In this document: positions 32,816 to 53,518 of the stretch, piece after piece | How positions within the stretch are numbered: the stretch's first letter is position 1 | Layout of the letters: each line of letters opens with the position of its first letter | Virus record (IMG/VR): IMGVR_UViG_3300027974_000031 | Location: 11,060-75,059 of that record | Reading direction: 5' to 3' (one strand) | Origin: a virus | Taxonomy: Duplodnaviria > Caudoviricetes | DNA: 64,000 nt | Position numbers and translations under genes: made by a program | The notes under the pieces: generated by a model | Databases searched by the model: none | What the model saw: only the letters and a program-made list of their open reading frames with translations | Told to the model about the DNA's origin: nothing

Positions 32816-33391
32816 TTAATCTTTAATACGAATGTTTTTTACATCTAATCCAAGTTTATCTGCAATCTGTTCTAAAGTTAATTCAATAACCTTTGGTCGG
32901 TTATCAATGATAGTTCCTTTTGAATTTTCGGAATAGATTTTATCTCCATTCAAGTTATACTCCCGCTTAATCCAATATCCATCTGTGTTTTCATAATAGA
33001 TTTCTTTTCCATTCAAGTTATACTCCCGCTTATTCCAAAATCCATCTGAGTTTTCATAATAGATTTCATTACCATTCAAGTCATATCCATGCTTATTCCA
33101 AAATCCATCTGAGTTTTCATAATAAATTTGTTTACCATTCAAGTTATACTCACACTTATTCCAATATCTATTTGAGTTTTCAGAATAGATTTGATTACCA
33201 TTCTGGTCATACTCACGCTTAATCCAATATCCATCTGAATATTCACAATAGATTTCTTTTCCATTCTGATCATACTCACGCTTAATCCAATATCCATCTG
33301 AGTTTTCAGAATAGATTAATTTATTATTCTTATCTTTGATAAAGAATGGGAAATCTTTTACCTTTAAAAATTGTGCTATTGTTTCTTTCAT
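32816..33391 (-). CDS. 21-aa-repeat protein paralogue A5 (191 aa)
   Basis: MKETIAQ head, EIYxExSDGxWxKxEYDxNG repeats, ELTLEQIADKLG tail. Confidence 0.9.
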   Translation of the reverse strand: MKETIAQFLKVKDFPFFIKDKNNKLIYSENSDGYWIKREYDQNGKEIYCEYSDGYWIKREYDQNGNQIYSENSNRYWNKCEYNLNGKQIYYENSDGFWNKHGYDLNGNEIYYENSDGFWNKREYNLNGKEIYYENTDGYWIKREYNLNGDKIYSENSKGTIIDNRPKVIELTLEQIADKLGLDVKNIRIKD

Positions 33392-33403
33392 AATTTTATT
33401 TTT

Positions 33404-33853
33404 TTAATCTTTAATACGAAAGTTTTTTACATTCAATCCTAGTTTATCTGCGACTTCCTGTAATGTCAATTCGATAATTTTTGGTCGGTTATCAATGATA
33501 GTTCCTTTTGAATTTTCAAAATAGATTTCATTACCATTCAAGTCATACTCATGCTTAATCCAATATCCATCTGAATATTCACAATAAATTTGTTTACCAT
33601 TCAAGTTATACTCACGCTTATTACAAAGTCCATCTGAGTTTTCATAATAGATTTCTTTTCCATTCAAATTATACTCACACTTATTCCAAAATCCATTTGA
33701 GTTTTCAGAATAGATTTGATTACCATTCTGATCATACTCACGCTTAATCCAATATCCATCTGAGGTTTCAGAATAGATTTCTTTATTATCTTTATTTTTA
33801 ATAAAGAATGGAAAATCTTTTACTTTTAATAGTTGTGCAATTGTTTCTTTCAT
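33404..33853 (-). CDS. 21-aa-repeat protein paralogue A4 (149 aa)
   Basis: same architecture as A5. Confidence 0.9.
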   Translation of the reverse strand: MKETIAQLLKVKDFPFFIKNKDNKEIYSETSDGYWIKREYDQNGNQIYSENSNGFWNKCEYNLNGKEIYYENSDGLCNKREYNLNGKQIYCEYSDGYWIKHEYDLNGNEIYFENSKGTIIDNRPKIIELTLQEVADKLGLNVKNFRIKD

Positions 33854-33865
33854 AATTTTATTTTT

Positions 33866-34378
33866 TTAATCTTTAATACGAATGTTTTCTACATTCAATC
33901 CTAATTTATCTGCGACTTCCTGTAATGTCAATTCAATAATTTTTGGTCGGTTATCCATGATAGTTCCATCTGAGTTTTCATAATAGATTTGATTACCATT
34001 CTGGTCATACTCACACTTATTCCAATATCCATTTGAATCTTCAAAATAGATTTCATTACCATTCAAGTTATACTCACACTTATTCCAATATCCATTTGAA
34101 TCTTCAAAATAGATTTGATTACCATTCTGGTCATACTCACGCTTATTCCAAAATCCATTTGAGGTTTCAGAATAGATTAAATTACTATTCTGGTCATATT
34201 CATGCTTGAACCAAAGTCCATCTGAATCTTCATAATAGATTTGATTACCATTCTGATCATACTCACACTTATACCAAAATCCATCTGAATATTCACAATA
34301 GATTTCATCTTCATCTTTATTTTTAATAAAGAATGGAAAATCTGTTATCTTTAAAAATTGTGCTATTGTTTCTTTCAT
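33866..34378 (-). CDS. 21-aa-repeat protein paralogue A3 (170 aa)
   Basis: same architecture as A5. Confidence 0.9.
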   Translation of the reverse strand: MKETIAQFLKITDFPFFIKNKDEDEIYCEYSDGFWYKCEYDQNGNQIYYEDSDGLWFKHEYDQNSNLIYSETSNGFWNKREYDQNGNQIYFEDSNGYWNKCEYNLNGNEIYFEDSNGYWNKCEYDQNGNQIYYENSDGTIMDNRPKIIELTLQEVADKLGLNVENIRIKD

Positions 34379-34391
34379 AATTTTATTTTTT

Positions 34392-34904
34392 TTAATCTTT
34401 AATACGAATATTTTCTACATTCAATCCTAGTTTAGCTGCAATCTGTTCTAAAGTTAATTCAATTACCTTTGGTCGGTTATCAATGATAATTCCATCTGAG
34501 TTTTCAGAATAGATTTCATTACCATTCTGATCATACTCACGCTTAGACCAACGTCCATCTGAATTTTCAAAATAGATTATGTTACCATTCTGGTCATACT
34601 CCCACTTAATCCAATATCCATCTGAATCTTCAGAATAGATTTCATTACCATTCTGGTCATACTCAGTCTTAAACCAATATCCATCTGAATCTTCACGATA
34701 GATTTGTTTACCATTCAAGTTATACTCACACTTATACCAAAATCCATCTGAATCTTCACAATAGATTTCTTCTCCATTCAAGTTATACTCACACTTATAC
34801 CAAAATCCATCTGAGTTCTCATAATAGATTTCATCTTCATCTTTACTTTTAATACAGAATGGAAAATCTGTTACCTTTAAAAATTGTGCTATTGTTTCTT
34901 TCAT
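34392..34904 (-). CDS. 21-aa-repeat protein paralogue A2 (170 aa)
   Basis: same architecture as A5. Confidence 0.9.
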   Translation of the reverse strand: MKETIAQFLKVTDFPFCIKSKDEDEIYYENSDGFWYKCEYNLNGEEIYCEDSDGFWYKCEYNLNGKQIYREDSDGYWFKTEYDQNGNEIYSEDSDGYWIKWEYDQNGNIIYFENSDGRWSKREYDQNGNEIYSENSDGIIIDNRPKVIELTLEQIAAKLGLNVENIRIKD

Positions 34905-34917
34905 AAAAAGATTTCTT

Positions 34918-35304
34918 TTAATCTTTGATACGAATGTTCTTTACATTCAGTCCTAATTTATCTGCAATCTGTTCTAAAGTTAATTCAATTACCTTTGGTC
35001 GGTTATCAATGATAGTTCCTTCTGAGTTTTCAGAATAGATTTCATTACCATTCTGGTCATATTCATGCTTATACCAAAATCCATCTGAATATTCACAATA
35101 GATTTCTTTACCATTCTGGTCATATTCACGCTTAATCCAATATCTATCTGAATCTTCACAATAAATTTGTTTACCATTCAAGTTATACTCACGCTTAATC
35201 CAGTATCCATTTGAATCTTCATGATAGATTTCTTTATTATTCTTATTTTTAATAAGGAATGGAAAATCTTTTACTTTTAATAGTTGTGCAATTGTTTCTT
35301 TCAT
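34918..35304 (-). CDS. 21-aa-repeat protein paralogue A1 (128 aa)
   Basis: same architecture as A5. Confidence 0.9.
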   Translation of the reverse strand: MKETIAQLLKVKDFPFLIKNKNNKEIYHEDSNGYWIKREYNLNGKQIYCEDSDRYWIKREYDQNGKEIYCEYSDGFWYKHEYDQNGNEIYSENSEGTIIDNRPKVIELTLEQIADKLGLNVKNIRIKD

Positions 35305-35333
35305 AATTTTATTTTTTTAATCTTTGATCGTCT

Positions 35334-35528
35334 TTATATTAACTCAATCTTGGTTTCTGTCAAGTCTTTTCTATCTTGATTCTTCAATCGGGATTTAGCG
35401 AGCTTTCTAGCCCACTTTCTAAATTCCTGGATATTCTTAATTTTTCGGCAGCAAGAACAGCCATATTTCAGTTCTTTCGTGCCCCCGTTCAGACATTCCT
35501 GCTTTTGAAGTTTTCTAAATTCGTCCAT
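35334..35528 (-). CDS. small basic hypothetical protein
   Basis: ORF with a CSCC motif. Confidence 0.55.
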   Translation of the reverse strand: MDEFRKLQKQECLNGGTKELKYGCSCCRKIKNIQEFRKWARKLAKSRLKNQDRKDLTETKIELI

Positions 35529-35558
35529 GGCTAATTGTAGCTCTGATTAGTCTATTAG

Positions 35559-36284
35559 TCAAGCAGACAAATAATTTTTATTTGAATCAGTCAAACCTGA
35601 ATGAATATTAATTTGCTGTCCATCACTATAACCTTTGTCTGCAACCAATGCATTATAATTATTAACTGATTTTCCGGTTTTATAAACAACATCTGGAAAA
35701 AACTTGTTAATAGCTTGTTTAAGCATTTCAGACGAATTCACCAGCATTAGGCTATAATTAGCCTGCAAGTCGCTTGCTATAGTGCTTTCCGTTGCTTCCT
35801 GCATATCCTTTAGCTTCTTAGATAGACCTTGCCACAGTCCACAAAAATAGCTTTCCCTAGCAGTTTTAACCGTAACTTGTGGATTGTTTTCATAAAATTT
35901 ATACCAAAGATTGAAAAAAGTATTTGTAAGATATTCATTCAAAAACTTGGCAAATTCGATTTTGTCTTTTTTTCCAACAAAATAAATTTTGCGTCCAATC
36001 GAACGATTACCGCCAGTAATAATTTCAACTTCAAAATATTTCTTAATAATATTAGAAACAAATCGTTGAGTAATTGGCAACCTTGCTTTGTTCGTTTCCA
36101 TTTCTTCCTTTTCAATTTGATCAGAAGAATAATTGGAAGAAACCCTAGACAATTCGATATTGTGTAGAGTAGCCAGTTCAATAGCCTTTTCCATGGCAGC
36201 ACTAGCTTCATGTTCGTTCGATGAACCGCTAAGGGCAATCAATTTTTCCAACTTAACAAGGATTTTTTCGTTCGGATTGTTCAT
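35559..36284 (-). CDS. DUF2786-domain protein
   Basis: KLEKLIALSGSSNEHEASAAMEKA; TTGACA promoter, leaderless ATG. Confidence 0.75.
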   Translation of the reverse strand: MNNPNEKILVKLEKLIALSGSSNEHEASAAMEKAIELATLHNIELSRVSSNYSSDQIEKEEMETNKARLPITQRFVSNIIKKYFEVEIITGGNRSIGRKIYFVGKKDKIEFAKFLNEYLTNTFFNLWYKFYENNPQVTVKTARESYFCGLWQGLSKKLKDMQEATESTIASDLQANYSLMLVNSSEMLKQAINKFFPDVVYKTGKSVNNYNALVADKGYSDGQQINIHSGLTDSNKNYLSA

Positions 36285-36521
36285 GACTTATATTACTAGA
36301 ATTCAGCTATTTGTCAATCAATTACTTCATTACGCTCCAATATCTAAAATTTCTTCGCCTTCACGTTGTCCGATAGAATAATTAACGGGCCGAATTGCAA
36401 TATATCGCATAGAAGAATCATCAGGAATTTCAATCATGATAGTATCCAGAAGTTCTCCATCTTCGCTAGTCACAGAGATTCGTATTGCACGTAGTTCTTT
36501 CATAATACACCTTACTCCGTT

Positions 36522-36791
36522 TTATTCTTCTGTCAACATTTTATCTTGCCTTTTAATCGTGTCCCAAGGATTTGCAAAAGAATCAAAATATCCCTGTTCG
36601 CGCAATTCATCTAGTTCTTCGTCCCTCCAAACAATTTTTAGTGGTGGGCAACCATAATGACTAAGCATAAAGGAAAAAATACTTTGATTTTCTTCATCCG
36701 TAACATATGCTGCCGTAGTCTTAGGATCATTCACTAACACAACCTTGCACTCTCCACATTTTTCACAAACTGCATGATACCATGTTTTCAT
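36522..36791 (-). CDS. hypothetical protein with CxxC motif
   Basis: ORF. Confidence 0.6.
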   Translation of the reverse strand: MKTWYHAVCEKCGECKVVLVNDPKTTAAYVTDEENQSIFSFMLSHYGCPPLKIVWRDEELDELREQGYFDSFANPWDTIKRQDKMLTEE

Positions 36792-37201
36792 ATTATTTTA
36801 TTGTTTTATTGTTTTAAACGCTTCTTCTTCCGTATAACCGAATCCATTATTTGTATCATTAATCAATATTCCGGTTTCTCCATATTGATATGATACCATA
36901 TAAAAATCAGAGTTGGGCATACGCAACACCTACTTATAAATCTTTTGTTTCTTTTCCATGTTCTAATTTACATCAATAACAGTTATTCGTCAAACACTTA
37001 TTTTATTTTTTTATCCGTCTCTCTGCCCCTGTATTCACCAGTTTTGAAATTATATATTTTGTTACATTAACAATATATCAAATTTGAGAAAATATGAGGC
37101 TTCTTTCATATCATGTTAATAACCGTTCTTTTACTCATATTTGAGTTATTTCGCACGCCCGACAAAAATTTAATACAAATTGTTCTTTATTCATATAAAG
37201 A

Positions 37202-37387
37202 TTACGTAATACTTGCTTTATTCTGTCTGTGCCATTCTTGAACCTCTTCTAAATTTACGGGCATATACGGACAATAAATCACTGATTTCGGACTTCCATC
37301 ATCATATCTTTCTATAATTGGTTCATAACCTTCTTCGGTAGTTCGGAGGTCTATGAATCTTAATTTTGGAGGTTCTTCTTTATTCAT
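37202..37387 (-). CDS. hypothetical protein
   Basis: ORF with YCPYMP motif. Confidence 0.55.
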   Translation of the reverse strand: MNKEEPPKLRFIDLRTTEEGYEPIIERYDDGSPKSVIYCPYMPVNLEEVQEWHRQNKASIT

Positions 37388-37414
37388 CTTATTGTATCAT
37401 GAATTAGACTCTAA

Positions 37415-37828
37415 TCAAGCGAAACTTACGACTCCGACTAAACAATCAGGTTTTTCACACGGTTCATAACGTGTAAAATCGTCTGACAATTTAAACCATG
37501 TTTCCCCATCTGATTCATGCCAATAATGCCCTTCAATAATATTTGCCCCATGTTTTTCAATCAAAAGATAGGTATAATATCCAAGTTCTTGAATATATTC
37601 ACAATTATTTTCGATTGTTTCAACCGCCAGTTCTTTAGACAAAAAATAACCCCGATTGGACGGCTTGTTAAGCATGTTTCGCAATCGTTTTTCCTGCACT
37701 TCGGGAGGCAAGACAAACCTAGATTTATCTACCATATGTCGATACTGCTCTTCTAGTTCAAGGTTTTCAATCTGTCCCCGAATATAATTAGAGCTAAATC
37801 CAACGATTACCCAAATAAAATCATTCAT
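37415..37828 (-). CDS. hypothetical protein
   Basis: ORF. Confidence 0.65.
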   Translation of the reverse strand: MNDFIWVIVGFSSNYIRGQIENLELEEQYRHMVDKSRFVLPPEVQEKRLRNMLNKPSNRGYFLSKELAVETIENNCEYIQELGYYTYLLIEKHGANIIEGHYWHESDGETWFKLSDDFTRYEPCEKPDCLVGVVSFA

Positions 37829-37834
37829 AAAATA

Positions 37835-38086
37835 TTAATTATTTTTAACCAAACTAACACCTTTTTCAGGTAGGTCAATTGTTACTTTATTATTTTCTGC
37901 CCATTCTTTAAAATCTTCTGCCATGTATTGAAGTAGCTTTTCAAATTCGACAGGTTCTTCCAAAGATTCATTAACACGAAAAAGTATAAAAACGCGCTTC
38001 ATTACGTTTACCGCAGAAATCGCTACATCTTTCTTGATTTCTTTTTCAAAATCATCAATCGCGGTTCCGATAACATGTTTATTCAT
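37835..38086 (-). CDS. hypothetical protein
   Basis: ORF. Confidence 0.6.
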   Translation of the reverse strand: MNKHVIGTAIDDFEKEIKKDVAISAVNVMKRVFILFRVNESLEEPVEFEKLLQYMAEDFKEWAENNKVTIDLPEKGVSLVKNN

Positions 38087-38151
38087 AAGTTATTCTAAAA
38101 ATGTGATTAGTTTGATAATTTTATTATTTTTATTTAAATATTTTCTGTCAA

Positions 38152-38364
38152 CTACCTTTTCATTTTATTCCAGTCTCCAGCACAAATAGAATGTAAGAAG
38201 CACCAAAAATATGGTTTAAGATACCATTTAGAATACATATGGTTCTTCCATTCTTCCCGTGTTCGGCCATCGTTAGGATCATTCACCAATAGAAACGGAA
38301 TTCCGCACAAAAGAAGGGAAGGAATAAACAAACAAAAAGCCAGAATACGAATTAAGATTTTCAT
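38152..38364 (-). CDS. small membrane protein
   Basis: N-terminal hydrophobic helix; TTGACA..TATAAT promoter. Confidence 0.6.
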   Translation of the reverse strand: MKILIRILAFCLFIPSLLLCGIPFLLVNDPNDGRTREEWKNHMYSKWYLKPYFWCFLHSICAGDWNKMKR

Positions 38365-38518
38365 GCTTTATTATACATCAAGGTTAATCGTTGTCAATGA
38401 CTTTATGTTTATCCACCAGTTTAAATTTCTTTTGACTCATAATTTCCCTAACTTGTTCCAAAGAAATAGGAGTGTAATTGTGGCAGTATCCAGTGCTTTA
38501 GTCAATTCGATTTTTAAC

Positions 38519-39307
38519 CTAATTTGTAAATTCAAGTTTTTTGTTGATAAGTTTTGGAAAACAGAAGTTCCAGACTGGAGCCGCTTGTTTCAAATATTTT
38601 ACAAAATCGGCAAGTTCTTCTGGCTTGGAAGAATTAAAAGACCAACTCATATCATCACACCCAAAAATATATACATGGTCATCATATACCCAAACACGCA
38701 TATATGCTTCGTCACCAACAATTACTGGTTGTCCTGCATAACGATCCGATTTAATCCAAAACTGTTCAACCACCCTTTCAGAATTTCTATTATAATATTC
38801 AGGATCATCTGTCAGGATTTCAGCATAGCAATTAATATCGACTAAAACGGATTTGCGGGCCTTCTTACTCAATTTTCCATCATAGTTTTTGAAAAATTCA
38901 TCTTGTCGTTTCATCATATCAAATGAACGTCCAGCACTTTCAAAAGAATCCTTTTTAGTCTGATTGAAACCAGTTTTCAACAAACTATCAGAAATATATT
39001 CTAGCCAACTAATCATTTGTTCGGTTGTTTCGGGAACAGGAATTCTAAAAACATCATAAACATAGCTGAATAAATTATCAAAATAGAATTTGTCTTCTGC
39101 TGGTGTAATATCGAGTTTATTATTCTTACGACGATTTAGAAGTTCCATAATGATAGGAAAATCACAGTTATTATCCTGAATAAACTTCGCAATATCTTCG
39201 GGTGTCTGATATAGCGGAGGAAAATGGATAAAGTCGTTCGATATATCGACTTTAGATAAGTCAATTTCACCGTCAGGAAGTTTTGGAAGATCGTTTTTCA
39301 GTTTCAT
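38519..39307 (-). CDS. hypothetical protein
   Basis: likely start MKLKNDLP just after the upstream gene. Confidence 0.65.
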   Translation of the reverse strand: MKLKNDLPKLPDGEIDLSKVDISNDFIHFPPLYQTPEDIAKFIQDNNCDFPIIMELLNRRKNNKLDITPAEDKFYFDNLFSYVYDVFRIPVPETTEQMISWLEYISDSLLKTGFNQTKKDSFESAGRSFDMMKRQDEFFKNYDGKLSKKARKSVLVDINCYAEILTDDPEYYNRNSERVVEQFWIKSDRYAGQPVIVGDEAYMRVWVYDDHVYIFGCDDMSWSFNSSKPEELADFVKYLKQAAPVWNFCFPKLINKKLEFTN

Positions 39308-39317
39308 ATTACATTTT

Positions 39318-39521: not shown

Positions 39522-39525
39522 ATAA

Positions 39526-40364: not shown

Positions 40365-41075
40365 TTAAATAAAATCTTTTGCAGGAACATTCATATTGAT
40401 CAGGATTTTTTCCACCCCTTTTGCAAAATAATTCAGATAAAAATCAGCATCATTAGTAGCATTAGCAGCACTAGCAGCATAAGAAGCAGCATAAGCAGCA
40501 TTAGCAGCATTAGCAGCATAAGAAGCAGCATAAGCAGCATTAGCAGCATTATCAGCAGCATAAGCAACATTAGCAGTATAAGCAGCATAAGCAGTATAAG
40601 AAGCATTAGCAGCATAAGAAGCAGAAACAGCATTAGCAGCATAAGCATTTTTTGCATTTGCTAATGTTTTTGCACCAACTAAATCATTTTTTAATTTTGG
40701 AGTAAACCAAAAATAATTTTGTTTTGATAGAAAATATGGAAGAAAATCCGTGCAGGTAAACATCGCCAGTTTTTCTAAAAATTCTTTTCGATCAAAGTTA
40801 TCATCTGTTCCCAATTGGAGAATTGCCAGATTTCGCATTCCTCTCGACCGTGCAAAATCGGAACTCCAACTTGAATCATTTAGACGAATCTTCAACGCTC
40901 GGATAGCACTATCTACACATTTTGGATCATCTGAATGATCCAATCCGAGTGAATAGCATATTGCGGCTTCAACGCACATCTGGCCAGGAATCGGGTTTCC
41001 TAGCCCATGTGATAGACCATGTGACAGTGTTTCGTCAATTTTGGCGACCAATTCTTTTGTTATTTCGATGTTCAT
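40365..41075 (-). CDS. hypothetical protein with Ala/Tyr/Asn low-complexity repeat
   Basis: MCVEAAI...DDPKCV N-terminus; AAYAASYAANA tract. Confidence 0.75.
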   Translation of the reverse strand: MNIEITKELVAKIDETLSHGLSHGLGNPIPGQMCVEAAICYSLGLDHSDDPKCVDSAIRALKIRLNDSSWSSDFARSRGMRNLAILQLGTDDNFDRKEFLEKLAMFTCTDFLPYFLSKQNYFWFTPKLKNDLVGAKTLANAKNAYAANAVSASYAANASYTAYAAYTANVAYAADNAANAAYAASYAANAANAAYAASYAASAANATNDADFYLNYFAKGVEKILINMNVPAKDFI

Positions 41076-41163: not shown

Positions 41164-41241
41164 TGGCACACCGGGAGGGATTCAAACCCCCATAAAATCT
41201 TCTTAGAAGGAAGACGCCTAATTCATTCGAGCCACCGGTGC
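41164..41241 (-). tRNA. trnR: tRNA-Arg(UCU)
   Basis: cloverleaf; anticodon arm TCTTC-CTTCTAA-GAAGA; encoded CCA. Confidence 0.9.
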
Positions 41242-42615: not shown

Positions 42616-42700
42616 TGGTGTGCTAGATAGGATTCGCACCTATTCACCCGAAGGAACAGATTTACAGTCTGCCGCTACTCTCTAACTTAGCCGCTAACAC
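42616..42700 (-). tRNA. trnY: tRNA-Tyr(GUA)
   Basis: GCAGA-CTGTAAA-TCTGT arm, long variable arm, CCA. Confidence 0.9.
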
Positions 42701-42884
42701 ATTTAAAATTTAGGAGAAGATCGAACTACCATCTTAATTCAGAATATAGTCTTTTGGTTTAATGATTGGCGATTATTCAAATCCTATCATATTTTAACGG
42801 CCCGTTACCTACCGCTTATCTCCATTTTATATTACTCTATCCAACAAATTAACCTAATATTTCTCAATAAAGTTTTTATTTAAT

Positions 42885-43699: not shown

Positions 43700-44338
43700 T
43701 TATATTTTCTTTTGGTAAAATTTGTGTCTAACTACAGTTTCTAAATTAGTTTTTTCAGCAATCATGGGCAACATCTGGTGTCTAACCCAATTTCTTTGAT
43801 ATTTTAAATCATTGTTTGTTGGATCAAATACCACCCATTTCATTAAATCGTTTTTCTCTGCCCATTCTACCATCTGTTCTTTGGTTGTCAACAAAAAAGG
43901 ATGATAAATCGTAAAATTGGGAAAAATAGTTTTTTCCTGAATTGGTTTATATTCTGGACAACCCTTGAGGAAATTCATAAAAAATTGTTCTACACAATCT
44001 CCCAAATTATGAGCAGTCACATAATTAGTATGCCCTGTTTGTTCAGCCATATAGGCCAATCTCCATTGTCTGAAATCGTTTTCGGTCTGCTCACCTATAG
44101 ATTGCTCTACCGACCTTGTAATAAATTGGAATGGTAAACTATGCGCCGAACAAAAGTCTCTAACTGATTCTTCCATTTGTTTATTAGCAGGTTGCCAATT
44201 ATGGTTAAAATGAAGAACCTTGATTTTTAATCTAGTTCTTTGGCTTAACCAGTGACATGAAGAAATAGAATCAACTCCTCCACTAACAAGGAAAGTATAT
44301 TCTTTTTGCTTATCTAATAAATTATTAAAAATTTTCAT
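43700..44338 (-). CDS. tilS: tRNA(Ile)-lysidine synthetase (short, catalytic domain only)
   Basis: PP-loop SGGVDS, HFNH, TAHNLGD, HPFL, DPTN.D..YQRNWVRH. Confidence 0.9.
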   Translation of the reverse strand: MKIFNNLLDKQKEYTFLVSGGVDSISSCHWLSQRTRLKIKVLHFNHNWQPANKQMEESVRDFCSAHSLPFQFITRSVEQSIGEQTENDFRQWRLAYMAEQTGHTNYVTAHNLGDCVEQFFMNFLKGCPEYKPIQEKTIFPNFTIYHPFLLTTKEQMVEWAEKNDLMKWVVFDPTNNDLKYQRNWVRHQMLPMIAEKTNLETVVRHKFYQKKI

Positions 44339-44440
44339 TTCTATTCTTGTTGTCAAGCAAATGTTGCTCAAATTCAGTTAACTCGCTGTCCGCAAGGTAG
44401 ATAAAGGTCATGGCTCAATATACTTCGATTTTATAATCTG

Positions 44441-44839
44441 TCAATAGATAAAATGCGGAGTTTCAATCACTCCAAAATAAGTATTAAAATCAAAAATTCC
44501 TGATTTTGCACATTTCAAACACCATGCCAATTCTTTGTCCAGTTTAGGAATAATATATTGTTTCCTACGTTTACCGCGCAATTCTCCTACAGAATATCTT
44601 TGATTCTTTTCTGGATAATAAGAAATTTCGGTTTCAAAATTGGTAGAATTTGCCCACCGATCAAAAGTAGGTTTATATGCAAATTGAACAGCCCATTTTT
44701 TCTCTCCCGGTTCAATAAATTTAGGATCAATAACTTTTTCAAAAATGCGAATATGAAAATGGGTAGTTTTTCCACAACCATACTCAAGTTTGATATTGTG
44801 GCGGCGAAATTCATCCAAAATAGGGCGAGGTAGCTTCAT
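44441..44839 (-). CDS. hypothetical protein
   Basis: ORF; start MKLPRP. Confidence 0.6.
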   Translation of the reverse strand: MKLPRPILDEFRRHNIKLEYGCGKTTHFHIRIFEKVIDPKFIEPGEKKWAVQFAYKPTFDRWANSTNFETEISYYPEKNQRYSVGELRGKRRKQYIIPKLDKELAWCLKCAKSGIFDFNTYFGVIETPHFIY

Positions 44840-44858
44840 AATACAATATACTTCAATT

Positions 44859-45068
44859 TTATACTTCGTCAAGAATATAATCAACGCCATCATCAATTGT
44901 TAATGGCCAGTAATATTCCATTTCGGTAATTGATTCATATTTCCAATTCATTTGACTACAAAAATCTTTTACAGTTTCAATAGATGGAGCATTAATCCAT
45001 TTAACTAGATGGTCGGTTTCATCCGTATTAGGATCAAATCCTTCAAGTGTGACATCAAATGTTTTCAT
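44859..45068 (-). CDS. hypothetical protein
   Basis: ORF. Confidence 0.6.
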   Translation of the reverse strand: MKTFDVTLEGFDPNTDETDHLVKWINAPSIETVKDFCSQMNWKYESITEMEYYWPLTIDDGVDYILDEV

Positions 45069-45349
45069 ACTTCGTCAATCTTCTTTTTGCTTATCCAACA
45101 AATTATTAAAAATTTTCATTTGTTTTATCTAAAGCTTGTCTAACTGCCATAATTAGACTATCTGGAGCATTTCGTAATTATTCATTCTTTAATGAATGAC
45201 ATTTTTCGCTCTGCCCTTGTATTCACTGAATTATTTTTTATATTTTTTATTACAATAAAAAATATAAAAAAGTAATGTAAAAAAATAAAATTTTAAAAAA
45301 ATTACTTTTAGTTTTTGTTGAAGAATTTTATTTATTTTTATTGCTTTTA

Positions 45350-46503: not shown

Positions 46504-47181
46504 TTAAGAAACAATAACGCCATTTGCAGTAAAAGAACGATCAAGGTTCCAATCATTCTGAGAAATTGCAAAAAGCATATCTTTTGTTCGGTATTTAGTT
46601 TTTCTTAAAATCTGATTAGAATGATTTGCTAACCAAGAGTGACGAATATTCAAATATTGTATAGTCCATTCTTTTTCATTTCCGCCTTTAGACGGAGTTT
46701 TTGCAGGAAAACGAGTTCTTAAAAAGTTTAAGATTCCTCCAGAATGAATAAAAGAATCATAAATTATAAGCATTGAAAGAGGTTGTGTAAAACCATTTTC
46801 TTTGAAAAATTCAAGTGCAGGATTCCAGTAATGTTCATCAAAAAAATCATCTTGTGCTTCTCTCATTACAGGGTCACTACCTGCTTCACGAAGCTCGTTT
46901 ATAAGCTTTTCGTCATTAACTAGTGAGATTTTGCCAATCTTATCTACATAAGGTTTAAAAAACTCACTATGTTTGCCATTTTTGTTAGAATAAGATTTAA
47001 TTAATTTATTAAGATTTCCCCATTCAGTTGTTTGACTTTTGCCGTATGTTATTTGTTGTATTCCTTTTGGCCCATCGGAAAAAATTGTCACGTTACTGTA
47101 ATCACCATCAGGTTTTCCAGTTTCAAAAACATTTAAAATGCTTTGTATTTTATCTTTCTTTTTAGTAATAGAATCACTCAT
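46504..47181 (-). CDS. GH46 chitosanase-like / lysozyme-fold endolysin
   Basis: ILNVFETG, DG..GI..ITYG..QTT, AQD.FF...YW.PA, YDSFIHSG; perfect TATAAATA-N5-ATG. Confidence 0.8.
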   Translation of the reverse strand: MSDSITKKKDKIQSILNVFETGKPDGDYSNVTIFSDGPKGIQQITYGKSQTTEWGNLNKLIKSYSNKNGKHSEFFKPYVDKIGKISLVNDEKLINELREAGSDPVMREAQDDFFDEHYWNPALEFFKENGFTQPLSMLIIYDSFIHSGGILNFLRTRFPAKTPSKGGNEKEWTIQYLNIRHSWLANHSNQILRKTKYRTKDMLFAISQNDWNLDRSFTANGVIVS

Positions 47182-47289
47182 AACTTTATTTATAAGTTTT
47201 TTAATTCTAGAAAAAAATAGTAACATAAAATTACTTATTTTAAAACATACATTAATATACCAAATATAAAGAATAAAACGAGAATAATT

Positions 47290-47877
47290 TTAACTAGAGA
47301 GTTGTTCGTAAAATGATATAATACTGTTACCTTTCTCATCAACTCCTTTTTTATAGTGTTCAAAAGAAAGAATTTTTTTAGGCATTTTTTCAATTACGTT
47401 TTCTGTATAAATTGTTTTTAGAGGCCAATTTCTATATTTTTTCACATAATGATATGAATAAATATAAGCATTTGCTTCTAAAATATATTGTTTTAAATTA
47501 ACATCTAAATTATGTTTTTTAATAAAATTTATAGAATTAATTTCGCAATCTCTTTCTAATTCAATTGCTTTATTAAATGCTCTAGTTAGTTTATTTTTAG
47601 ATGTTTCTTCTCCTTCTACCCAATTAAGAAATGGACATTTATCTGCTTCACACTTTTTCCAAAACTTAGGATTATTTTTCCATTGAAGAAAATGATGGTA
47701 TTCATGTATTAATATTTCAAATCCATTTATACTTTTATATGCACAAACAAGTTCTTTTTTATTAGAATCGAACCATCCGCCATAATTACCAACTTTTTCT
47801 TTTTGAATAATTTTTAAAGAAACATCATTTTCGATGCACTCAACAGCTACTTTTCCGATAAATTCATTTCGAGTCAT
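47290..47877 (-). CDS. HExxH metalloprotease-like protein
   Basis: LIHEYHHFLQW...ELERDCE. Confidence 0.65.
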   Translation of the reverse strand: MTRNEFIGKVAVECIENDVSLKIIQKEKVGNYGGWFDSNKKELVCAYKSINGFEILIHEYHHFLQWKNNPKFWKKCEADKCPFLNWVEGEETSKNKLTRAFNKAIELERDCEINSINFIKKHNLDVNLKQYILEANAYIYSYHYVKKYRNWPLKTIYTENVIEKMPKKILSFEHYKKGVDEKGNSIISFYEQLSS

Positions 47878-47912
47878 GTTTTAACTTATCAGAAAAAACT
47901 TTAAAAGTTTTT

Positions 47913-48374
47913 TTAAACTTTGATATGAAGAATATTTACATCCATTCCAAGTTTATCTGCAATTTCTTGTAAAGTCAACTCAATAATTTTTGGACGTTTA
48001 TTAATGATAGTTCCTTTTGAGTTTTTATATGAGTTTTCAAAATAAACTAATTTACCGTTACTATCATACTCATTCTTAACCCAATATTCATCTGAGTGTT
48101 CATAATATATTAAATTACCTTTATTATCATACTCACTCTTTGACCAAAATCCACTTGAATTTTCAAAATGAATTTCGTTACCATTCAAATCATACTCTTT
48201 TTTAAACCAATATCCATTTGAGTTCTCAAAATGGATTTCGTTACCGTTCTTGTCATACTCTTTTTTAAACCAATATCCATTTGATTTTTCAGAATAGATT
48301 TCTTTATTATCTGCATTTTTAATAAAGAATGGAAAATCTGTTACCTTTAAAAATTGTGCTATTGTTTCTTTCAT
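47913..48374 (-). CDS. 21-aa-repeat protein paralogue B5 (153 aa, most diverged)
   Basis: same architecture as A5. Confidence 0.9.
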   Translation of the reverse strand: MKETIAQFLKVTDFPFFIKNADNKEIYSEKSNGYWFKKEYDKNGNEIHFENSNGYWFKKEYDLNGNEIHFENSSGFWSKSEYDNKGNLIYYEHSDEYWVKNEYDSNGKLVYFENSYKNSKGTIINKRPKIIELTLQEIADKLGMDVNILHIKV

Positions 48375-48387
48375 AAAAAGATTTCTT

Positions 48388-49089
48388 TTAATCTTTAATA
48401 CGAATGTTTTCTACATCTAATCCTAGTTTATCTGCAATCTGTTCTAAAGTCAATTCAATAATTTTTGGTCGGTTATCAATGATAGTTCCTTTTGAGTTTT
48501 CATAATAGATTTTATTGCCATTCTGGTCATACTCCCGCTTAATCCAATATCCATTTGAATCTTCAAAATAGATTTCTTTTCCATTCAAGTTATATTCACG
48601 CTTAGACCAACGTCCATTTGAATCTTCATAATAGATTTCTTTTCCATTCAAGTCATATTCACACTTATACCAAAATCTATCTGAGTTCTCATAATAGATT
48701 TGATTACCATTCAAGTTATACTCACGCTTAATCCAATATCCTTTTGAGTTTTCAGAATAGATTTTATTGCCATTCTGATCATGTTCACGTTTAGACCAAT
48801 ATCCATCTGAGGTTTCAGAATAGATTACATTACTATTCTGGTCATATTCACGCTTAGACCAACGTCCAACTGAGTTTTCATAATAGATTTCATTACCATT
48901 CAAGTCATATTCACACTTATACCAAAATCCATTTGAGTTTTCATAATAGATTACATTACCATTCAAGTTATACTCACACTTATACCAAAATCCATCTGAA
49001 TCTTCACGATAGATTTCTTCTTCATCTTTATTTTTAATAAAGAATGGAAAATCTGTTACCTTTAAAAATTGTGCTATTGTTTCTTTCAT
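48388..49089 (-). CDS. 21-aa-repeat protein paralogue B4 (233 aa)
   Basis: same architecture as A5. Confidence 0.9.
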   Translation of the reverse strand: MKETIAQFLKVTDFPFFIKNKDEEEIYREDSDGFWYKCEYNLNGNVIYYENSNGFWYKCEYDLNGNEIYYENSVGRWSKREYDQNSNVIYSETSDGYWSKREHDQNGNKIYSENSKGYWIKREYNLNGNQIYYENSDRFWYKCEYDLNGKEIYYEDSNGRWSKREYNLNGKEIYFEDSNGYWIKREYDQNGNKIYYENSKGTIIDNRPKIIELTLEQIADKLGLDVENIRIKD

Positions 49090-49101
49090 AATTTTATTTT
49101 T

Positions 49102-49551
49102 TTAATCTTTAATACGAATATTTTCTACATTCAATCCTAGTTTATCTGCGACTTCCTGTAATGTCAATTCAATTACCTTTGGTCGGTTATCCATGATAGT
49201 TCCATTTGAATCTTCAAAATAGATTTCTTTTCCATTCAAGTTATATTCACGCTTAGACCAATATCCATTTGAATCTTCATAATAGATTTGATTACCATTC
49301 TGATCATACTCACACTTATTCCAAAATCCATTTGAGGTTTCAGAATAGATTAAATTACTATTCTTGTCATATTCATGCTTGAACCAACGTCCATTTGAAT
49401 CTTCACGATAGATTTGATTACCATTCTGATCATACTCACACTTATACCAAAATCCATTTGAATCTTCATGATAGATTTCTTTATTATTCTTATTTTTAAT
49501 AAGGAATGGAAAATCTTTTACTTTTAATAGTTGTGCAATTGTTTCTTTCAT
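49102..49551 (-). CDS. 21-aa-repeat protein paralogue B3 (149 aa)
   Basis: same architecture as A5. Confidence 0.9.
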   Translation of the reverse strand: MKETIAQLLKVKDFPFLIKNKNNKEIYHEDSNGFWYKCEYDQNGNQIYREDSNGRWFKHEYDKNSNLIYSETSNGFWNKCEYDQNGNQIYYEDSNGYWSKREYNLNGKEIYFEDSNGTIMDNRPKVIELTLQEVADKLGLNVENIRIKD

Positions 49552-49563
49552 AATTTTATTTTT

Positions 49564-50013
49564 TTAATCTTTAATACGAATGTTTTCTACACTCAATCCT
49601 AATTTATCTGCAATCTCTTCTAAAGTCAATTCAATAATTTTTGGTCGGTTATCCATGATAATTCCTTTTGAATCTTCATGATAGATTTGTTTACCATTCT
49701 GATCATACTCACGCTTAAACCAATATCCTTTTGAATCTTCATGATAGATTACTTTTCCATTCAAGTTATATTCACGCTTATACCAAAATCCATTTGAATC
49801 TTCAAAATAGATTTCTTTACCATTCAAGTTATACTCACACTTAATCCAAGATCCATCTGAATCTTCGAAATAGATTTGATTACCATTCTGATCATATTCA
49901 TGCTTGAACCAATATCCATCTGAATCTTCAGAATAGATTTCTTTATTATTCTTATTTTTAATAAAGAATGGAAAATCTGTTACCTTTAAAAATTGTGCTA
50001 TTGTTTCTTTCAT
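49564..50013 (-). CDS. 21-aa-repeat protein paralogue B2 (149 aa)
   Basis: same architecture as A5. Confidence 0.9.
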   Translation of the reverse strand: MKETIAQFLKVTDFPFFIKNKNNKEIYSEDSDGYWFKHEYDQNGNQIYFEDSDGSWIKCEYNLNGKEIYFEDSNGFWYKREYNLNGKVIYHEDSKGYWFKREYDQNGKQIYHEDSKGIIMDNRPKIIELTLEEIADKLGLSVENIRIKD

Positions 50014-50025
50014 AATTTTATTTTT

Positions 50026-50475
50026 TTAATCTTTAATACGAATGTTTTCTACATTCATATCAAGTTTATCTGCAATCTCTTCTAAAGTCAACTCAATAAC
50101 CTTTGGTCGGTTATCAATGATAGTTCCTTCTGAGTTTTCATAATAAATTACGTTACTATTCTGGTCATGTTCACGTTTAGACCAATATCCATCTGAGTTT
50201 TCACGATAGATTAATTTTCCATTCTGGTCATATTCATTCTTATTCCAATATCCTTTTGAATCTTCAAAATAGATTTCTTTACCATTCTGGTCATATTCAC
50301 GCTTAATCCAGTATGCATCTGAGTTTTCATAATAGATTTCTTTTCCATTCAAATCATACTCTTTTTTAAACCAATATCCATTTGATTTTTCAGAATAGAT
50401 TTCTTTGTTATTCTTTTCTTTGATAAGAAAAGGAAAATCTGTTATTTTTAAAAATTGCGCGATTGTTTCTTTCAT
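50026..50475 (-). CDS. 21-aa-repeat protein paralogue B1 (149 aa)
   Basis: same architecture as A5. Confidence 0.9.
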   Translation of the reverse strand: MKETIAQFLKITDFPFLIKEKNNKEIYSEKSNGYWFKKEYDLNGKEIYYENSDAYWIKREYDQNGKEIYFEDSKGYWNKNEYDQNGKLIYRENSDGYWSKREHDQNSNVIYYENSEGTIIDNRPKVIELTLEEIADKLDMNVENIRIKD

Positions 50476-50494
50476 AATAAAATTGCTTTTAATT

Positions 50495-50591
50495 TCCTAT
50501 CGAATTCAACCCTAATGGCGTTCAATTCTGAACATTTCACCACACCATATTTACTACGGACACTTTACCAATAGGGTTGAATTCGATAGGA
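50495..50591 (-). repeat. 24-bp inverted repeat (23/24) around a 49-nt spacer, in the leader of array B
   Basis: tcctatcgaattcaaccctaatgg / ccaatagggttgaattcgatagga. Confidence 0.9.
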
Positions 50592-50684
50592 CTTTTTATT
50601 TTAACGTTTTCTAGAGATTTGTCAACGCCCATAGGTAGCATAATGTCGGTAAATCCCGCTGCTTCTGCTAGTTTAATTGTTTTC

Positions 50685-51316
50685 TCTTCAATAGTCATAC
50701 TTGTTCTTTACTATAGAGTTTATCCCACAATTTATCAACTACTTTTAATGTATATGCTCTTAACATAGTTAGTATTCTTCGACAGAAATAATCTTAGCAA
50801 AAGGTGTTAGGTATTCCCAAACTTGCTCATTATAATGCGGTGTTCCGTTCCAGTAATTCGCAGCAGCCTCAATTACTTCAGGATCATCTATTTCTAACCC
50901 ATCCGACATTAACACGGATATTTCAGAACTCCAATTAACATCATGTCGCTCGACTTTACCTAAAGGTTCTACTACAAATAGATATTCTGTTCCACCGCCC
51001 GCTAACTCAACATCTTCGTCATTTCCACACATAAAAACACTATTCTTATGTGATAGCATATCTTTTGGTCTATAATATTCCAAAACAGAATAAAAATAAG
51101 TATTTGACCAATTTTCTTCATAATTATCATTGGGTTTTAGTATAGTTCCCACTGGAAGTTCAGTCATACTACCATGATAAAATCTTTTTGGTGCAGTGTT
51201 TTCGTTGATTATTTTGTTGTATAATTGATTAAAGGTCATAATATTATTTATCTTCAATAGTCATACTTGTTCTTTACTATAGAGTTTATCCCACAATTTA
51301 TCAACTACTTTTAATG
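50685..51316. repeat. 66-bp direct repeats (50685-50750 and 51251-51316) flanking one gene
   Basis: identical tcttcaatagtcatac...acttttaatg copies. Confidence 0.95.
50769..51239 (-). CDS. Arr-like ADP-ribosyltransferase, CTS-tagged
   Basis: FYHGSMTELPVGTILKP, VF, LFVVEPLG, EYL; TAAATA-N5-ATG; MTFNQLYNKIINE. Confidence 0.65.
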   Translation of the reverse strand: MTFNQLYNKIINENTAPKRFYHGSMTELPVGTILKPNDNYEENWSNTYFYSVLEYYRPKDMLSHKNSVFMCGNDEDVELAGGGTEYLFVVEPLGKVERHDVNWSSEISVLMSDGLEIDDPEVIEAAANYWNGTPHYNEQVWEYLTPFAKIISVEEY

Positions 51317-51574
51317 CATCACCTGCAATCTTACCAACGTTTTCTTCGCAAGATTCTTCAACAATATCTTTCAAAGCTTCATACATCACACCCTTTTTAA
51401 CGATTGAGATAAATTCCTGGAGGCAACAAATCAATTTCAAAGATTCCCCAAGGGGTAGGCAATCCGAAAAATAGTGCAGAAAGAACTAAAATAGTTAAAA
51501 TAAGTTGAAGACAACCAGAATTTATATTTTGAATATTATTTAACATAATTATTTAATTATTATTTAATGTGATT

Positions 51575-52513
51575 TTAATAAATGGGCGAATTTAATTCTT
51601 TTAAGCGGCGAAGCTCAAAAATTGCTAAATCTTTAAATTTAAGTTCTATGTCCCAAAAAACATTAGGATTATAATTATGAGGAACATTAGTTGGCATGTC
51701 ACGATGCTTACGAGTAATAACACCATTTTCTATAATACCCTCGCTGTAATGGAACACAGGAGTATAGCTGCCCCATGTTGAATATGCAAGTTCAAATGCA
51801 TCACGTTCGCTTAAGCCATCAGGGAGAATATAATGGTGTAAAGTGTCAAAAGTAATAGGAATACTATATTTTTCATGAAAATGTCTAACCAAATTACGCA
51901 CACTCCATGTGCCGTTTTTATTGTCATTATTTTCAAAAACTAAACGCTTACGAACATTATCAGATAAACGGTCGTAGTTACGCATAACAGAAGATACAAT
52001 GTCAGACGTATTACCGTCTTTACGCACATGAATGTTCATTGGTGCAGAGTAATCAAGAGGCAAACCCAGCAAATCAAAAATCTCGCCATGCTGATTTAGG
52101 TCACGAAAAGTGTTTTTGAGAATATTTTCGTCACTAGTAGAAAGTGAAATGTATTCACTTGGATGAGCAGAAATTTTTATTGGCTGAATTGCCAGTAAAT
52201 TTTTGATACGAGAGCATACTTCTTGAATATCAGAAAAGTTAGGCAAATCACAAACCTGCATGTTTACACTGTCATGAGTAATGATAGGACAGAGTGAAGA
52301 TGAAAGACGATAGCCAGAGATATTATTAAGCTGGCAAAACCGAATTGTTTTTTCGGTGTTTTTAAAGTTGTGTAAAATACGCGAACATAGTTCAGATAAA
52401 GCATCTTTGGGAGACTGTTTGTTGAACTGTGTAAGAGTCATGGTTTTAAAGTTATTGCCGTTATCAGACAGTGTTTTACTGATACAGCACAGGTTCCAAT
52501 TATTGAATTTCAT
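51575..52513 (-). CDS. uvsE: UV damage endonuclease UvsE/UvdE
   Basis: YRLSSSL, SAHP, NIHV, RLVFENND, PITFDTLHH, FHYS, IELKFKD. Confidence 0.9.
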   Translation of the reverse strand: MKFNNWNLCCISKTLSDNGNNFKTMTLTQFNKQSPKDALSELCSRILHNFKNTEKTIRFCQLNNISGYRLSSSLCPIITHDSVNMQVCDLPNFSDIQEVCSRIKNLLAIQPIKISAHPSEYISLSTSDENILKNTFRDLNQHGEIFDLLGLPLDYSAPMNIHVRKDGNTSDIVSSVMRNYDRLSDNVRKRLVFENNDNKNGTWSVRNLVRHFHEKYSIPITFDTLHHYILPDGLSERDAFELAYSTWGSYTPVFHYSEGIIENGVITRKHRDMPTNVPHNYNPNVFWDIELKFKDLAIFELRRLKELNSPIY

Positions 52514-52727
52514 GTTGTTTAAGGAATTTAGTTTTAAAATATTCTACTGTAAAGTAGTTCTCCACTTTATCATCTTCGTTATATGCTGTCAAGTAACCGT
52601 CACTATAATAAAATAGTGAATAATTTCCAGATAGTTTGGAAGAAGCACATTCTAAATAAACTTTTTCTTCTTTTTCAAAAGAAATAGCTTTGTACTTTGT
52701 AGTTTCTTTAATTTCAGTTATTTCCAT
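52500..52727 (-). CDS. hypothetical protein
   Basis: ORF. Confidence 0.55.
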   Translation of the reverse strand: MEITEIKETTKYKAISFEKEEKVYLECASSKLSGNYSLFYYSDGYLTAYNEDDKVENYFTVEYFKTKFLKQHEIQ

Positions 52728-52753
52728 TATTATTAATCTTAACCAGTTTAAAA

Positions 52754-52978
52754 TTAAGTCAAATGATAAATGTATTGTTCTAAATCTCCCATATCAATTT
52801 CATCAGGCGAATCACCAGCAAAGAAAATTCCGCCGTGTTCAATAGTAATCACATCCATTCCTTTTGATTTGAGACGTTTAGATACTTCATTTCTAAATTC
52901 TGTAGTCACAATGCAAGGGATGACCTTTACACCATTATAGACTGATTGTTTTGCGTTAATTTTCATATTAAAATTCAT
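52754..52978 (-). CDS. hypothetical protein
   Basis: ORF; start uncertain. Confidence 0.5.
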   Translation of the reverse strand: MNFNMKINAKQSVYNGVKVIPCIVTTEFRNEVSKRLKSKGMDVITIEHGGIFFAGDSPDEIDMGDLEQYIYHLT

Positions 52979-53119
52979 TAAAAGCTTCTTCGGCTCTTTT
53001 ACAATTTCTTGTTGCACTATTCTTACAAAGAGTTGATATAAATTTATAATACCACAGAAACTTAAAAAGTTTCATGATGCACCAAGAGTATAAAAAGTAA
53101 AATAACTTAACTATAAATG

Positions 53120-53518
53120 TCAACATAAAGTATTTTCAATAATTTCTGTTCGGTTATCCATGATAGTTCCATCTGAATCTTCGAAATAGATTTCTTTACC
53201 ATTCAAGTTATACTCACGCTTAAACCAATATCCATCTGAATCTTCGAAATAGATTTCTTTACCATTCAAGTTATACTCACACTTAATCCAATATCCATCT
53301 GAATCTTCGAAATAGATTTCTTTACCATTCTGGTCATATTCATGCTTATTCCAATATCCATCTGAATCTTCAGAATAGATTTGTTTACCATTCAAGTTAT
53401 ACTCACACTTATACCAAAATCCATTTGAATCTTCAAAATAGATTTCTTTATTATTCTTATTTTTAATAAGGAATGGAAAATCTTTTACTTTTAATAGTTG
53501 TGCAATTGTTTCTTTCAT
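53120..53518 (-). CDS. orphan 21-aa-repeat protein paralogue C (truncated tail)
   Basis: same head and repeats; the ELTLEQIADKLG tail is lost. Confidence 0.85.
   Translation of the reverse strand: MKETIAQLLKVKDFPFLIKNKNNKEIYFEDSNGFWYKCEYNLNGKQIYSEDSDGYWNKHEYDQNGKEIYFEDSDGYWIKCEYNLNGKEIYFEDSDGYWFKREYNLNGKEIYFEDSDGTIMDNRTEIIENTLC

Follow-up and report, generated by a model that had tools for sequence, protein, structure and literature searches.

Tandem arrays of short proteins built from a derived YD/Rhs repeat with variable surface positions in the genome of a large uncultured phage

A 64,000-nt stretch of the caudoviral IMG/VR record IMGVR_UViG_3300027974_000031 (bases 11060-75059 of the record; hereafter the window) carries eleven paralogous genes on the minus strand. 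They are arranged as two five-gene tandem arrays, A and B, and an orphan, C1, which lacks the common tail. According to CheckV the source record is about 29% complete, which at a length of 75,059 nt indicates a large phage. All eleven open reading frames (ORFs) listed in an initial annotation of the DNA were found in place on the minus strand (Table 1), and a search of the whole 75,059-nt record with B4 gave no further copies outside the eleven. The public sequencing runs that contain the window stretch are freshwater and lake metagenomes from 11 studies. Sequence searches and predicted models identify the 21-aa unit of these proteins as a derived YD/Rhs repeat. The proteins belong to a large, uncharacterised and essentially phage-restricted family, which we named mini-YD. 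The initial annotation had missed both the kinship with YD/Rhs repeats and the fact that the family is large and widespread and no peculiarity of the source phage.

The proteins have a common plan. A head of 25 aa is followed by three to eight 21-aa units, by half a unit (8 aa) and by a tail of 33 aa, with a conserved DNRPK linker between the half unit and the exchangeable C-terminal end. Tandem Repeats Finder reported a period of 63 nt in all eleven genes (77-89% matches, 0% indels) and, in addition, a gene-level period of 462 nt. Nine of the gene lengths differ by multiples of 21 aa, as had been noted before. The heads and tails had been described as constant. They are indeed similar, yet the constancy is only approximate, the mean nucleotide identity being 87.9% among heads (76-100%), 88.4% among tails and 80.6% among units. 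The spacers between the array genes (12-13 nt) are A/T-rich and nearly identical. B5 has a 4-aa insert (YKNS) ahead of its tail, and its relatives P0063 and P0059 are 89% and 76% identical. In C1 homology to the family stops after an 11-nt insertion and no tail follows; C1 is a truncated variant or else a copy in decay.

Table 1. Genes of the two mini-YD arrays, the orphan gene and associated features (window coordinates; within an array the genes are listed in transcription order)
Feature	Position	Strand	Length	Remarks
A1, first in array A	34918..35304	-	128 aa	head, 3 units, half unit and tail
A2	34392..34904	-	170 aa	5 units
A3	33866..34378	-	170 aa	5 units; units 1-3 nearest to B3 units 1-3
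A4	33404..33853	-	149 aa	4 units; in one unit C replaces the invariant W
A5, last in array A	32816..33391	-	191 aa	6 units; NCBIfam RHS_core E 3.2e-6, far below the model cut-off
B1, first in array B	50026..50475	-	149 aa	4 units
B2	49564..50013	-	149 aa	4 units; protein used for modelling and family searches
B3	49102..49551	-	149 aa	4 units; first 100 nt identical to A1
B4, longest member	48388..49089	-	233 aa	8 units
B5, last and most divergent in array B	47913..48374	-	153 aa	4 units; divergent tail
C1, orphan	53120..53518	-	132 aa	4 units; tail lost
Sigma-70-like promoter match TTGACA-16-TAATAT	35336..35363	-		consensus match only; 32 nt upstream of the A1 start
Sigma-70-like promoter match TTGACA-16-TAAAAT, 11/12	50598..50625	-		consensus match only; upstream of array B
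Stem-loop, 14 bp, A/T runs on either side	32761..32796	.		20 nt downstream of A5; reported on the + strand

The eleven genes contain 51 full and 11 half units, and the 51 full units are all distinct, in protein and in DNA. Positions 1, 2, 4, 6, 10, 12, 14 and 15 have entropies of 0-0.24 bits, position 8 has 0.63 bits, and positions 3, 5, 7, 9, 11 and 13, designated x sites, have 1.6-2.4 bits. The constant framework reads I1 Y2 E4 S6 G8 W10 K12 E14 Y15 D/N16 N18 G19. Variation affects every other residue of the strands (3, 5, 11, 13) as well as the residues at the tips of the hairpins (7, 9, 17, 20, 21). The alphabets used at x sites are restricted: S/Y/F/C/H/R at position 3, Y/F/R at 9, I/N/Y/F/S at 11 and R/C/H at 13. 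Nucleotide diversity in the variable codons is located at codon positions 1-2. In most framework codons the third position is uniform as well, E14, D/N16 and G19 being exceptions. The same alternation of conserved and variable residues is kept in 284 distinct units from other phages.

The kinship of the unit was examined with sequence and structure searches. In Pfam nothing scored above threshold for the ten window proteins searched. NCBIfam RHS_core matched partial stretches of three of three proteins (E 3.2e-6 to 4.3e-4; the model cut-off is 2000 bits), and YD_repeat_2x matched one of the three with 14.0 bits against a cut-off of 15.8. Among the sequences of the PDB, B4 detected Rhs proteins at E 3.4e-4 to 3.7e-3; the alignment with Rhs effectors ran without a gap over about 160 residues in a period-21 register. 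An exhaustive phmmer search of a whole library also reached giant YD-repeat proteins. AlphaFold2 modelled B2 (predicted local distance difference test, pLDDT, 95.1; predicted template modelling score, pTM, 0.75) with 11 strands and two short helices. A1 (pLDDT 93.8) was modelled as a run of beta-hairpins with 9 strands and, again, two short helices. The proposal of the initial annotation that the repeats form a beta-sheet thus agrees with both models, in which the repeats are all beta-hairpins. With the B2 model the top Foldseek matches were Rhs cores, Tc toxin BC components and teneurins (best E 1.7e-7). The alignment with Rhs cores covered 103 columns at a root-mean-square deviation (rmsd) of 2.0-2.8 Å; for the YD-type folds matched, the rmsd was 2.0-3.0 Å over about 103 columns at E 1.7e-7 to 1e-5. 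VIA returned Z-scores of 12.8 for Rhs (rmsd 5.0 Å, 115 residues aligned), 11.5 for TccC3 (3.5 Å, 105 aligned) and 10.8 for Tse15 (4.4 Å, 104 aligned). The single-layer sheets of OspA followed (Foldseek E 7e-5 and weaker; VIA Z about 5). Viral, i.e. giant-virus, MORN-repeat proteins were weak structural neighbours (E 1.5e-3 and weaker), and Pfam MORN_2 had no match at E<=1 in ten of ten proteins. On predicted models, then, the fold is a YD-type beta-hairpin sheet. Taken together, the NCBIfam matches, the register of the PDB alignments, phmmer, AlphaFold2, Foldseek and VIA identify the unit as a YD/Rhs repeat.

None of the proteins has a 15-aa stretch with a hydropathy above 1.16; therefore, they are predicted to be soluble. 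In both models the strands comprise unit positions 21-5 and 10-15, and the loops positions 6-9 and 16-20. The models suggest that positions 3 and 5 lie on the face with W10, K12 and E14, and positions 11 and 13 on the other face with Y2 and E4; this assignment derives from the strand limits and supposes that the residues flanking each loop pair directly. The variable residues would then form stripes on both faces instead of a single variable face. Because the sheet has a single layer, both faces are exposed whichever arrangement holds. Thus, according to the models, the sheet should be an open single-layer strip with its variable residues accessible to solvent. Strand pairing was also sought in the covariation between unit positions, an approach which was dropped because lineage signal dominated. 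The prediction of a B2 homodimer or head-to-tail assembly, which was run without controls, scored 0.27 compared to a mark of 0.42, which counts neither for nor against such an assembly.

How do these proteins relate to the Rhs family? According to PMC11461821, 'Rhs' stands for rearrangement hotspot, and members of the family combine an N-terminal delivery domain, a YD-repeat cocoon and a cleavage motif with a C-terminal domain that is toxic. With Rhs/YD proteins, i.e. Rhs effectors of type VI secretion systems, Tc toxin BC components and teneurins, the mini-YD proteins share the 21-residue beta-hairpin unit, including the ...YD..G... signature and a second Gly ten residues on, in an in-register alignment. 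The predicted mini-YD sheet can be superposed on wall strips of the cocoon, and repeat-driven recombination is plausible in both. The differences are considerable. Mini-YD proteins have 128-233 aa and 9 to about 19 strands, and the strip is open and encloses nothing. The stretch matched in the shells amounts to about 110 residues out of some 650-1000. With 9 strands in 128 aa, 11 strands in 149 aa and a maximum of 8 units, single chains are not predicted to form a closed cocoon; this verdict covers single chains, and closure by oligomerisation is a separate possibility. The aspartyl autocleavage motif of the Rhs family, DP(I/L)G...D(P/S)xG(L/W), is missing: a regular expression for DPxG[LWIV] had no match in any of the eleven proteins. 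With a head of 25 aa and a tail of 33 aa, they displayed no toxin, PAAR or signal-peptide features, i.e. a toxin C-terminal domain and a secretion domain are lacking. On its conserved face the second strand carries W-K-E where canonical YD repeats have Y-x-Y. Finally, mini-YD proteins are phage-encoded, multi-copy and organised in tandem. We therefore rejected membership in the Rhs family, because cocoon, DPxG(L/W) motif, toxin domain and hydrophobic segment are all absent, and classed mini-YD as an open-strip derivative of the YD repeat. The familiar role of YD/Rhs repeats is to build the walls of closed toxin containers; here the hairpin occurs as a short, open, stand-alone strip.

Other systems resemble mini-YD in part. 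OspA and its engineered repeat extensions likewise have a flat antiparallel sheet without a hydrophobic core layer, yet OspA has no sequence relation and is a lipoprotein with globular end domains. The hairpin repeats of choline- and glucan-binding proteins are similarly about 20 aa long, aromatic-rich and variable in number; however, those proteins are exported binders of cell walls or glucans and have another repeat consensus. Expanded repeat families are known from poxviruses and giant viruses (ankyrin, MORN), and cassette-built receptors from the variable lymphocyte receptors (VLRs) of lampreys. The logic is the same, a scaffold with a hypervariable surface, a changing repeat number and tandem paralogues, but fold and host domain differ. 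In contrast to lamprey VLRs and the like, there is no evidence of somatic or programmed rearrangement in mini-YD. PADLOC reported no defence family at E<=0.01 for any of the four proteins submitted.

Mini-YD proteins are abundant in uncultured phages, often in several copies, and their function is undescribed. At E<=1e-3, 962 of 1003 word-sharing candidates matched, several of them on shared long contigs, and the exhaustive phmmer search matched 5358 clusters (50% identity). Matching Atlas clusters are 98-100% viral and are named 'hypothetical' or 'RHS repeat'; in neighbouring Atlas clusters PF05593 is annotated in 20-100% of the members. The best neighbours in BFVD are uncharacterised phage proteins. 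A homologue exists in a cultured phage, Verrucomicrobia phage P8625, where P8625_42 is located among replication genes; the P8625 genome paper leaves it 'hypothetical'. A nucleotide search with array A against cultured phage records gave no match, and the literature searched contained no description of the family. Among 185,579 species genomes only 7 loci were detected, all on contigs of single-amplified or metagenome-assembled genomes. Scans for close relatives were less productive. With one protein query against viral contigs we obtained 5 loci, with P0091 11 loci, none above 58% identity. A metagenome scan with overly degenerate patterns yielded 6 short loci, a neighbour-gene scan a single locus (L113) without family genes, a scan for the RecA-like neighbour no locus, and an exact 50-nt pattern of B5 had no match in a collection from which the window's own record and very close ones may be missing.

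Tandem arrays are a frequent arrangement in this family. At least two copies were present in 28 of 72 loci, and 56 of 86 gaps between neighbours were 30 nt or shorter. The contigs of loci L029, L033 and L060 carry 13, 8 and 8 copies, respectively; these numbers are undercounts as genes with one or two units escaped the regular expression used. Lengths elsewhere also step by 21 aa (105/126/147/168), and the number of units per protein ranges from 1 to 8. Four unrelated tail types follow the DNRPK linker across the family. Longer relatives consist of several concatenated head-repeat modules or are fused to SET or HAD_SAK_1 domains. Such exchangeable tails and fusions are what a portable binding or adaptor module would display. 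Two long proteins, P0121 and P0122 (550-757 aa), contain 4-5 concatenated modules, each with a helical head of about 60 aa unlike that of the window proteins, YD-like units and DNRP. These proteins resemble the products of a fused gene array or of stop read-through in another genetic code.

The initial annotation had proposed that the genes diversify by recombination with each other. This was borne out in part. The pairwise homoplasy index (PHI) test was significant in two of five data sets, head plus units 1-3 of the eleven genes and the 51 units (p=0.001 each). In-phase exact blocks of at least 45 nt numbered 10, compared to 0.4 +/- 0.6 in 200 column shuffles, i.e. about 25-fold more. The longest exact block in the repeat region has 61 nt and none amounts to a whole unit; 6 of the 10 top shared blocks connect different arrays. 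The sub-blocks said to recur in different genes and in both arrays are, therefore, real but short. Since its first 100 nt are those of A1 and its units 1-3 are nearest to units of A3, B3 is a mosaic. From the sequences, short-tract exchange would account for these patterns, as would duplication followed by fast change at x sites. Mechanistically, array size would rise and fall through tandem duplication of genes and through recombination, either unequal or in short tracts, between the 63-nt units and the ~88%-identical heads, tails and spacers. Recombination would also move blocks among genes and between arrays A and B. The arrays clearly illustrate concerted evolution in a phage genome, and variation in repeat number as well.

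Next to exchange, selection was analysed at the variable sites. At the x sites of the window the pairwise dN/dS according to Nei and Gojobori was 1.23; the framework and the turn between units had 0.08 and 0.26, respectively. Among 36 unit pairs with at least 58 of 63 nucleotides identical, x-site codons differed by 78 nonsynonymous and 3 synonymous changes, compared to a mutational expectation of 42:8. Framework codons had 6 nonsynonymous and 7 synonymous changes, those of the turn 28 and 14. Units that are closest to each other differ nearly exclusively at the variable sites, in agreement with the initial annotation, which described wide variation there and homogenised framework codons. In five of nine other loci (L033, L043, L049, L040, L057) omega was 4.0-6.9 with p<1e-3; as L043, L049 and L040 are on the same or identical contigs, these represent three independent contig groups. 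All selection counts ignore recombination and codon bias. Thus, the codon comparisons support diversifying selection for the family and do not demonstrate it for the source phage.

What do the proteins do? The reading which we prefer, and about which we are evenly divided, is that they would be soluble single-layer beta-sheet binding modules with paralogue-specific surfaces that evolve by duplication and exchange of units and genes. Its structural and evolutionary part alone is much firmer. In this reading the head would contribute a short helix and the first strand, and the units would stack into an open single-layer antiparallel strip, not into the closed cocoon of Rhs proteins. The modules, probably cytoplasmic, would be made from the non-structural part of the genome. 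Each paralogue would present its own surface and hence have its own target or affinity, the target probably being a host macromolecule; counter-defence would be one candidate role among others. If the variable positions do bind, the arrays would be a natural phage repertoire of repeat proteins whose scaffold resembles those employed in protein engineering, and a new place to seek host-takeover or counter-defence factors. A more far-reaching version is unlikely in our view. It posits a phage germline library of beta-sheet binders assembled from 21-aa cassettes, in which exposed residues would be under diversifying selection, and unit shuffling plus gene conversion between arrays would continually produce specificities that neutralise variable host proteins, e.g. 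those of defence systems. If so, many uncultured aquatic phages would possess a viral equivalent of immune receptors built from cassettes.

A number of points weigh against the preferred reading. With respect to kinship, Pfam RHS_repeat had no match at E<=1 in ten of ten proteins and the curated YD and RHS models were not passed. With respect to exchange, the PHI test was not significant in three of five data sets (p=0.20, 0.38, 0.27), and high site incompatibility could also stem from recurrent mutation. With respect to selection, omega at the x sites of the window was 1.17 (p=0.47) when disjoint nearest-neighbour pairs were used, so that positive selection in the window is not significant. 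Four other loci (L029, L060, L036, L034) had an omega of 1.3-1.5, likewise without significance. The order of units within the arrays is provisional, as short-read contigs break there, and the exact proteins A2-A5 and B1-B4, 8 of 10, are absent from a 15-billion-protein collection. The window's own contig is part of this collection, in which exact copies are present only of the edge genes A1 and B5, each on 6 contigs, the longest with B5 measuring 106,794 nt. Furthermore, the invariant ladder of aromatic and charged residues could itself be the functional surface. The basis for a function consists of sequence and predicted models.

It is possible, if on the unlikely side, that the arrays result from redundant amplification and neutral drift, a dosage 'accordion' with unconstrained x sites and concerted evolution of the framework. 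The x-site omega of the window, 1.17-1.23, is no different from 1, the four arrays without significance fit as well, and heads, tails and spacers are homogenised. In addition, phage loci are reported to undergo segmental amplification when defence exerts pressure on them (PMC13096335). However, drift does not agree with the restricted, non-random x-site alphabets, most evident at positions 3 and 13, with the distinctness of every unit despite homogenisation, with omega 4-7 at five other loci and with the excess of nonsynonymous changes among close pairs. Distinctly less probable is a binder of a periodic ligand. Here the Y/E/S and W/K/E ladder would contact a polymer of repetitive structure, e.g. 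a polysaccharide (a glycan strand or another one) or a nucleic acid, unit number would set the footprint and x sites would be secondary, comparable to the choline- and glucan-binding hairpin repeats. W10, K12, E4 and E14 are invariant throughout the family, and array B is directly upstream of genes for an HExxH protein, a small ORF and a GH46-like hydrolase. One of three proteins matched TIGR04035 with 23.9 bits (E 3.5e-5), short of the cut-off of 147.7 bits, and a PDB dextransucrase appeared at E 4.1; Pfam CW_binding had no match in ten of ten proteins. Moreover, array A and the P8625 homologue are not beside lysis-like genes, and a periodic ligand gives no clear reason for keeping 11 diverged copies. 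That the proteins are DNA-binding regulators, with the tail ELTLEEIADKLGxxVENIRIKD as a helix-turn-helix and the repeat strip as an oligomerising or sensing device, we consider very unlikely. The tail had been termed helix-turn-helix-like initially, and there is a sub-threshold resemblance: seven of ten proteins gave weak matches to Pfam Sigma70_r4 (E 9.4e-4 to 0.29), of which the top score, 19.1 bits, remained under the cut-off of 24.1 bits, and GntR regulators were the best natural PDB matches to the tail profile (E 0.03-0.085). Yet this part of the tail has only about 22 aa and one clear helix in the models, three unrelated tail types replace it in other family members, and C1 has none.

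Two further explanations were considered. The idea that x sites are written by targeted hypermutation, e.g. by a diversity-generating retroelement, is scarcely credible. It would explain why variation is focused on codon positions 1-2 of specific codons, but no reverse transcriptase (PF00078) was detected in the 75,059-nt record, i.e. in about 29% of the genome. There would be 51 targets instead of one variable region, no template repeat was noticed, and the changes involve more than one base. An assembly artefact, in which the arrays or the order of units would be short-read chimeras, is highly improbable. In its favour, the proteins missing from the collection may be cited, as well as breaks at both arrays in the short-read contigs of four public runs, which come from four studies. 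No piece spanning the arrays is listed in these runs, only short multiply mapping pieces. Against it, every one of the eleven genes is intact, in frame and composed of whole units, and exact repeats are at most 100 nt long. The run with the greatest similarity to the source has 158 of 222 pieces with a match of at least 99%, and its flanking pieces, with 0 differences, end at 32884, 35296 and 48210. Similar arrays are present in many independent contigs, and in another phage three independently assembled contigs are 100% identical across the arrays; identical contig pairs are uninformative on population variation of arrays. Joints in related populations (e.g. 34915 to 35315) were rejected as evidence for copy-number changes as they rest on at most 39 letters of near-identical head. 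Such arrays are a practical hazard because short-read assemblies break there.

Sigma-70-like matches such as those in Table 1 were not in excess in the region (20, compared to 24.5 in shuffles). The stem-loop downstream of A5 may be the terminator of the array A unit, its action on the minus strand being inferred.

In the window the arrays are situated among AAA_25, PP-loop and UvdE genes. A search for conserved partners beside arrays yielded only family members missed by the regular expression and a RecA-like ATPase (3 contig groups). This AAA_25/DnaB_C ATPase adjoins the arrays in the window (31717-32721, minus strand), in L020 (8519-9496) and in L049 (11806-12762) and is the sole non-family neighbour which recurs together with the window. 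Directly downstream of array B a possible lysis-type cluster is located (46504-47877, minus strand). Its members are the GH46-like hydrolase (E 3.5e-15), a protein of 195 aa in which an HEYHH (HExxH-like) motif occurs, and a 52-aa ORF with a hydrophobic C-terminus (47235-47393). Between array B and C1 a UV-damage endonuclease, UvdE, is encoded (51575-52513, minus strand; E 4.2e-37). A PP-loop ATPase of the TilS/QueC type (ATP_bind_3, E 1.8e-30; 43700-44371, minus strand) is beside tRNA genes, tRNA-Arg(TCT) at 41164-41241 and tRNA-Tyr(GTA) at 42616-42700, both on the minus strand.

Related lake populations differ from the window at several of its small genes, which are missing or replaced in runs X3, X4 and X15 at 44444-45167, 36295-37978 and 50627-51392; in one replacement 722 nt gave way to 26 letters. 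Among close relatives, then, the non-structural region shows high plasticity. In a related-population run (X3/X4) a joint skips 42619-42701, i.e. the tRNA-Tyr. A 236-aa ORF (40365-41075, minus strand) ends in a low-complexity AYAANA... run, which is encoded by a 9-nt/39-nt tandem repeat at 40446-40647 with 21 copies of AGCAGCATA-like units; long ORFs in other frames over this repeat are probably artefacts. A GC-rich island at 26001-28000 (48.7% compared to ~30% around it), which may have been acquired recently, contains a DUF932 gene (26015-27103; E 3e-24). Close to the start of the window the plus strand (681-1871) encodes a protein of 396 aa that includes an ART-PolyVal ADP-ribosyltransferase domain (E 4.4e-16).

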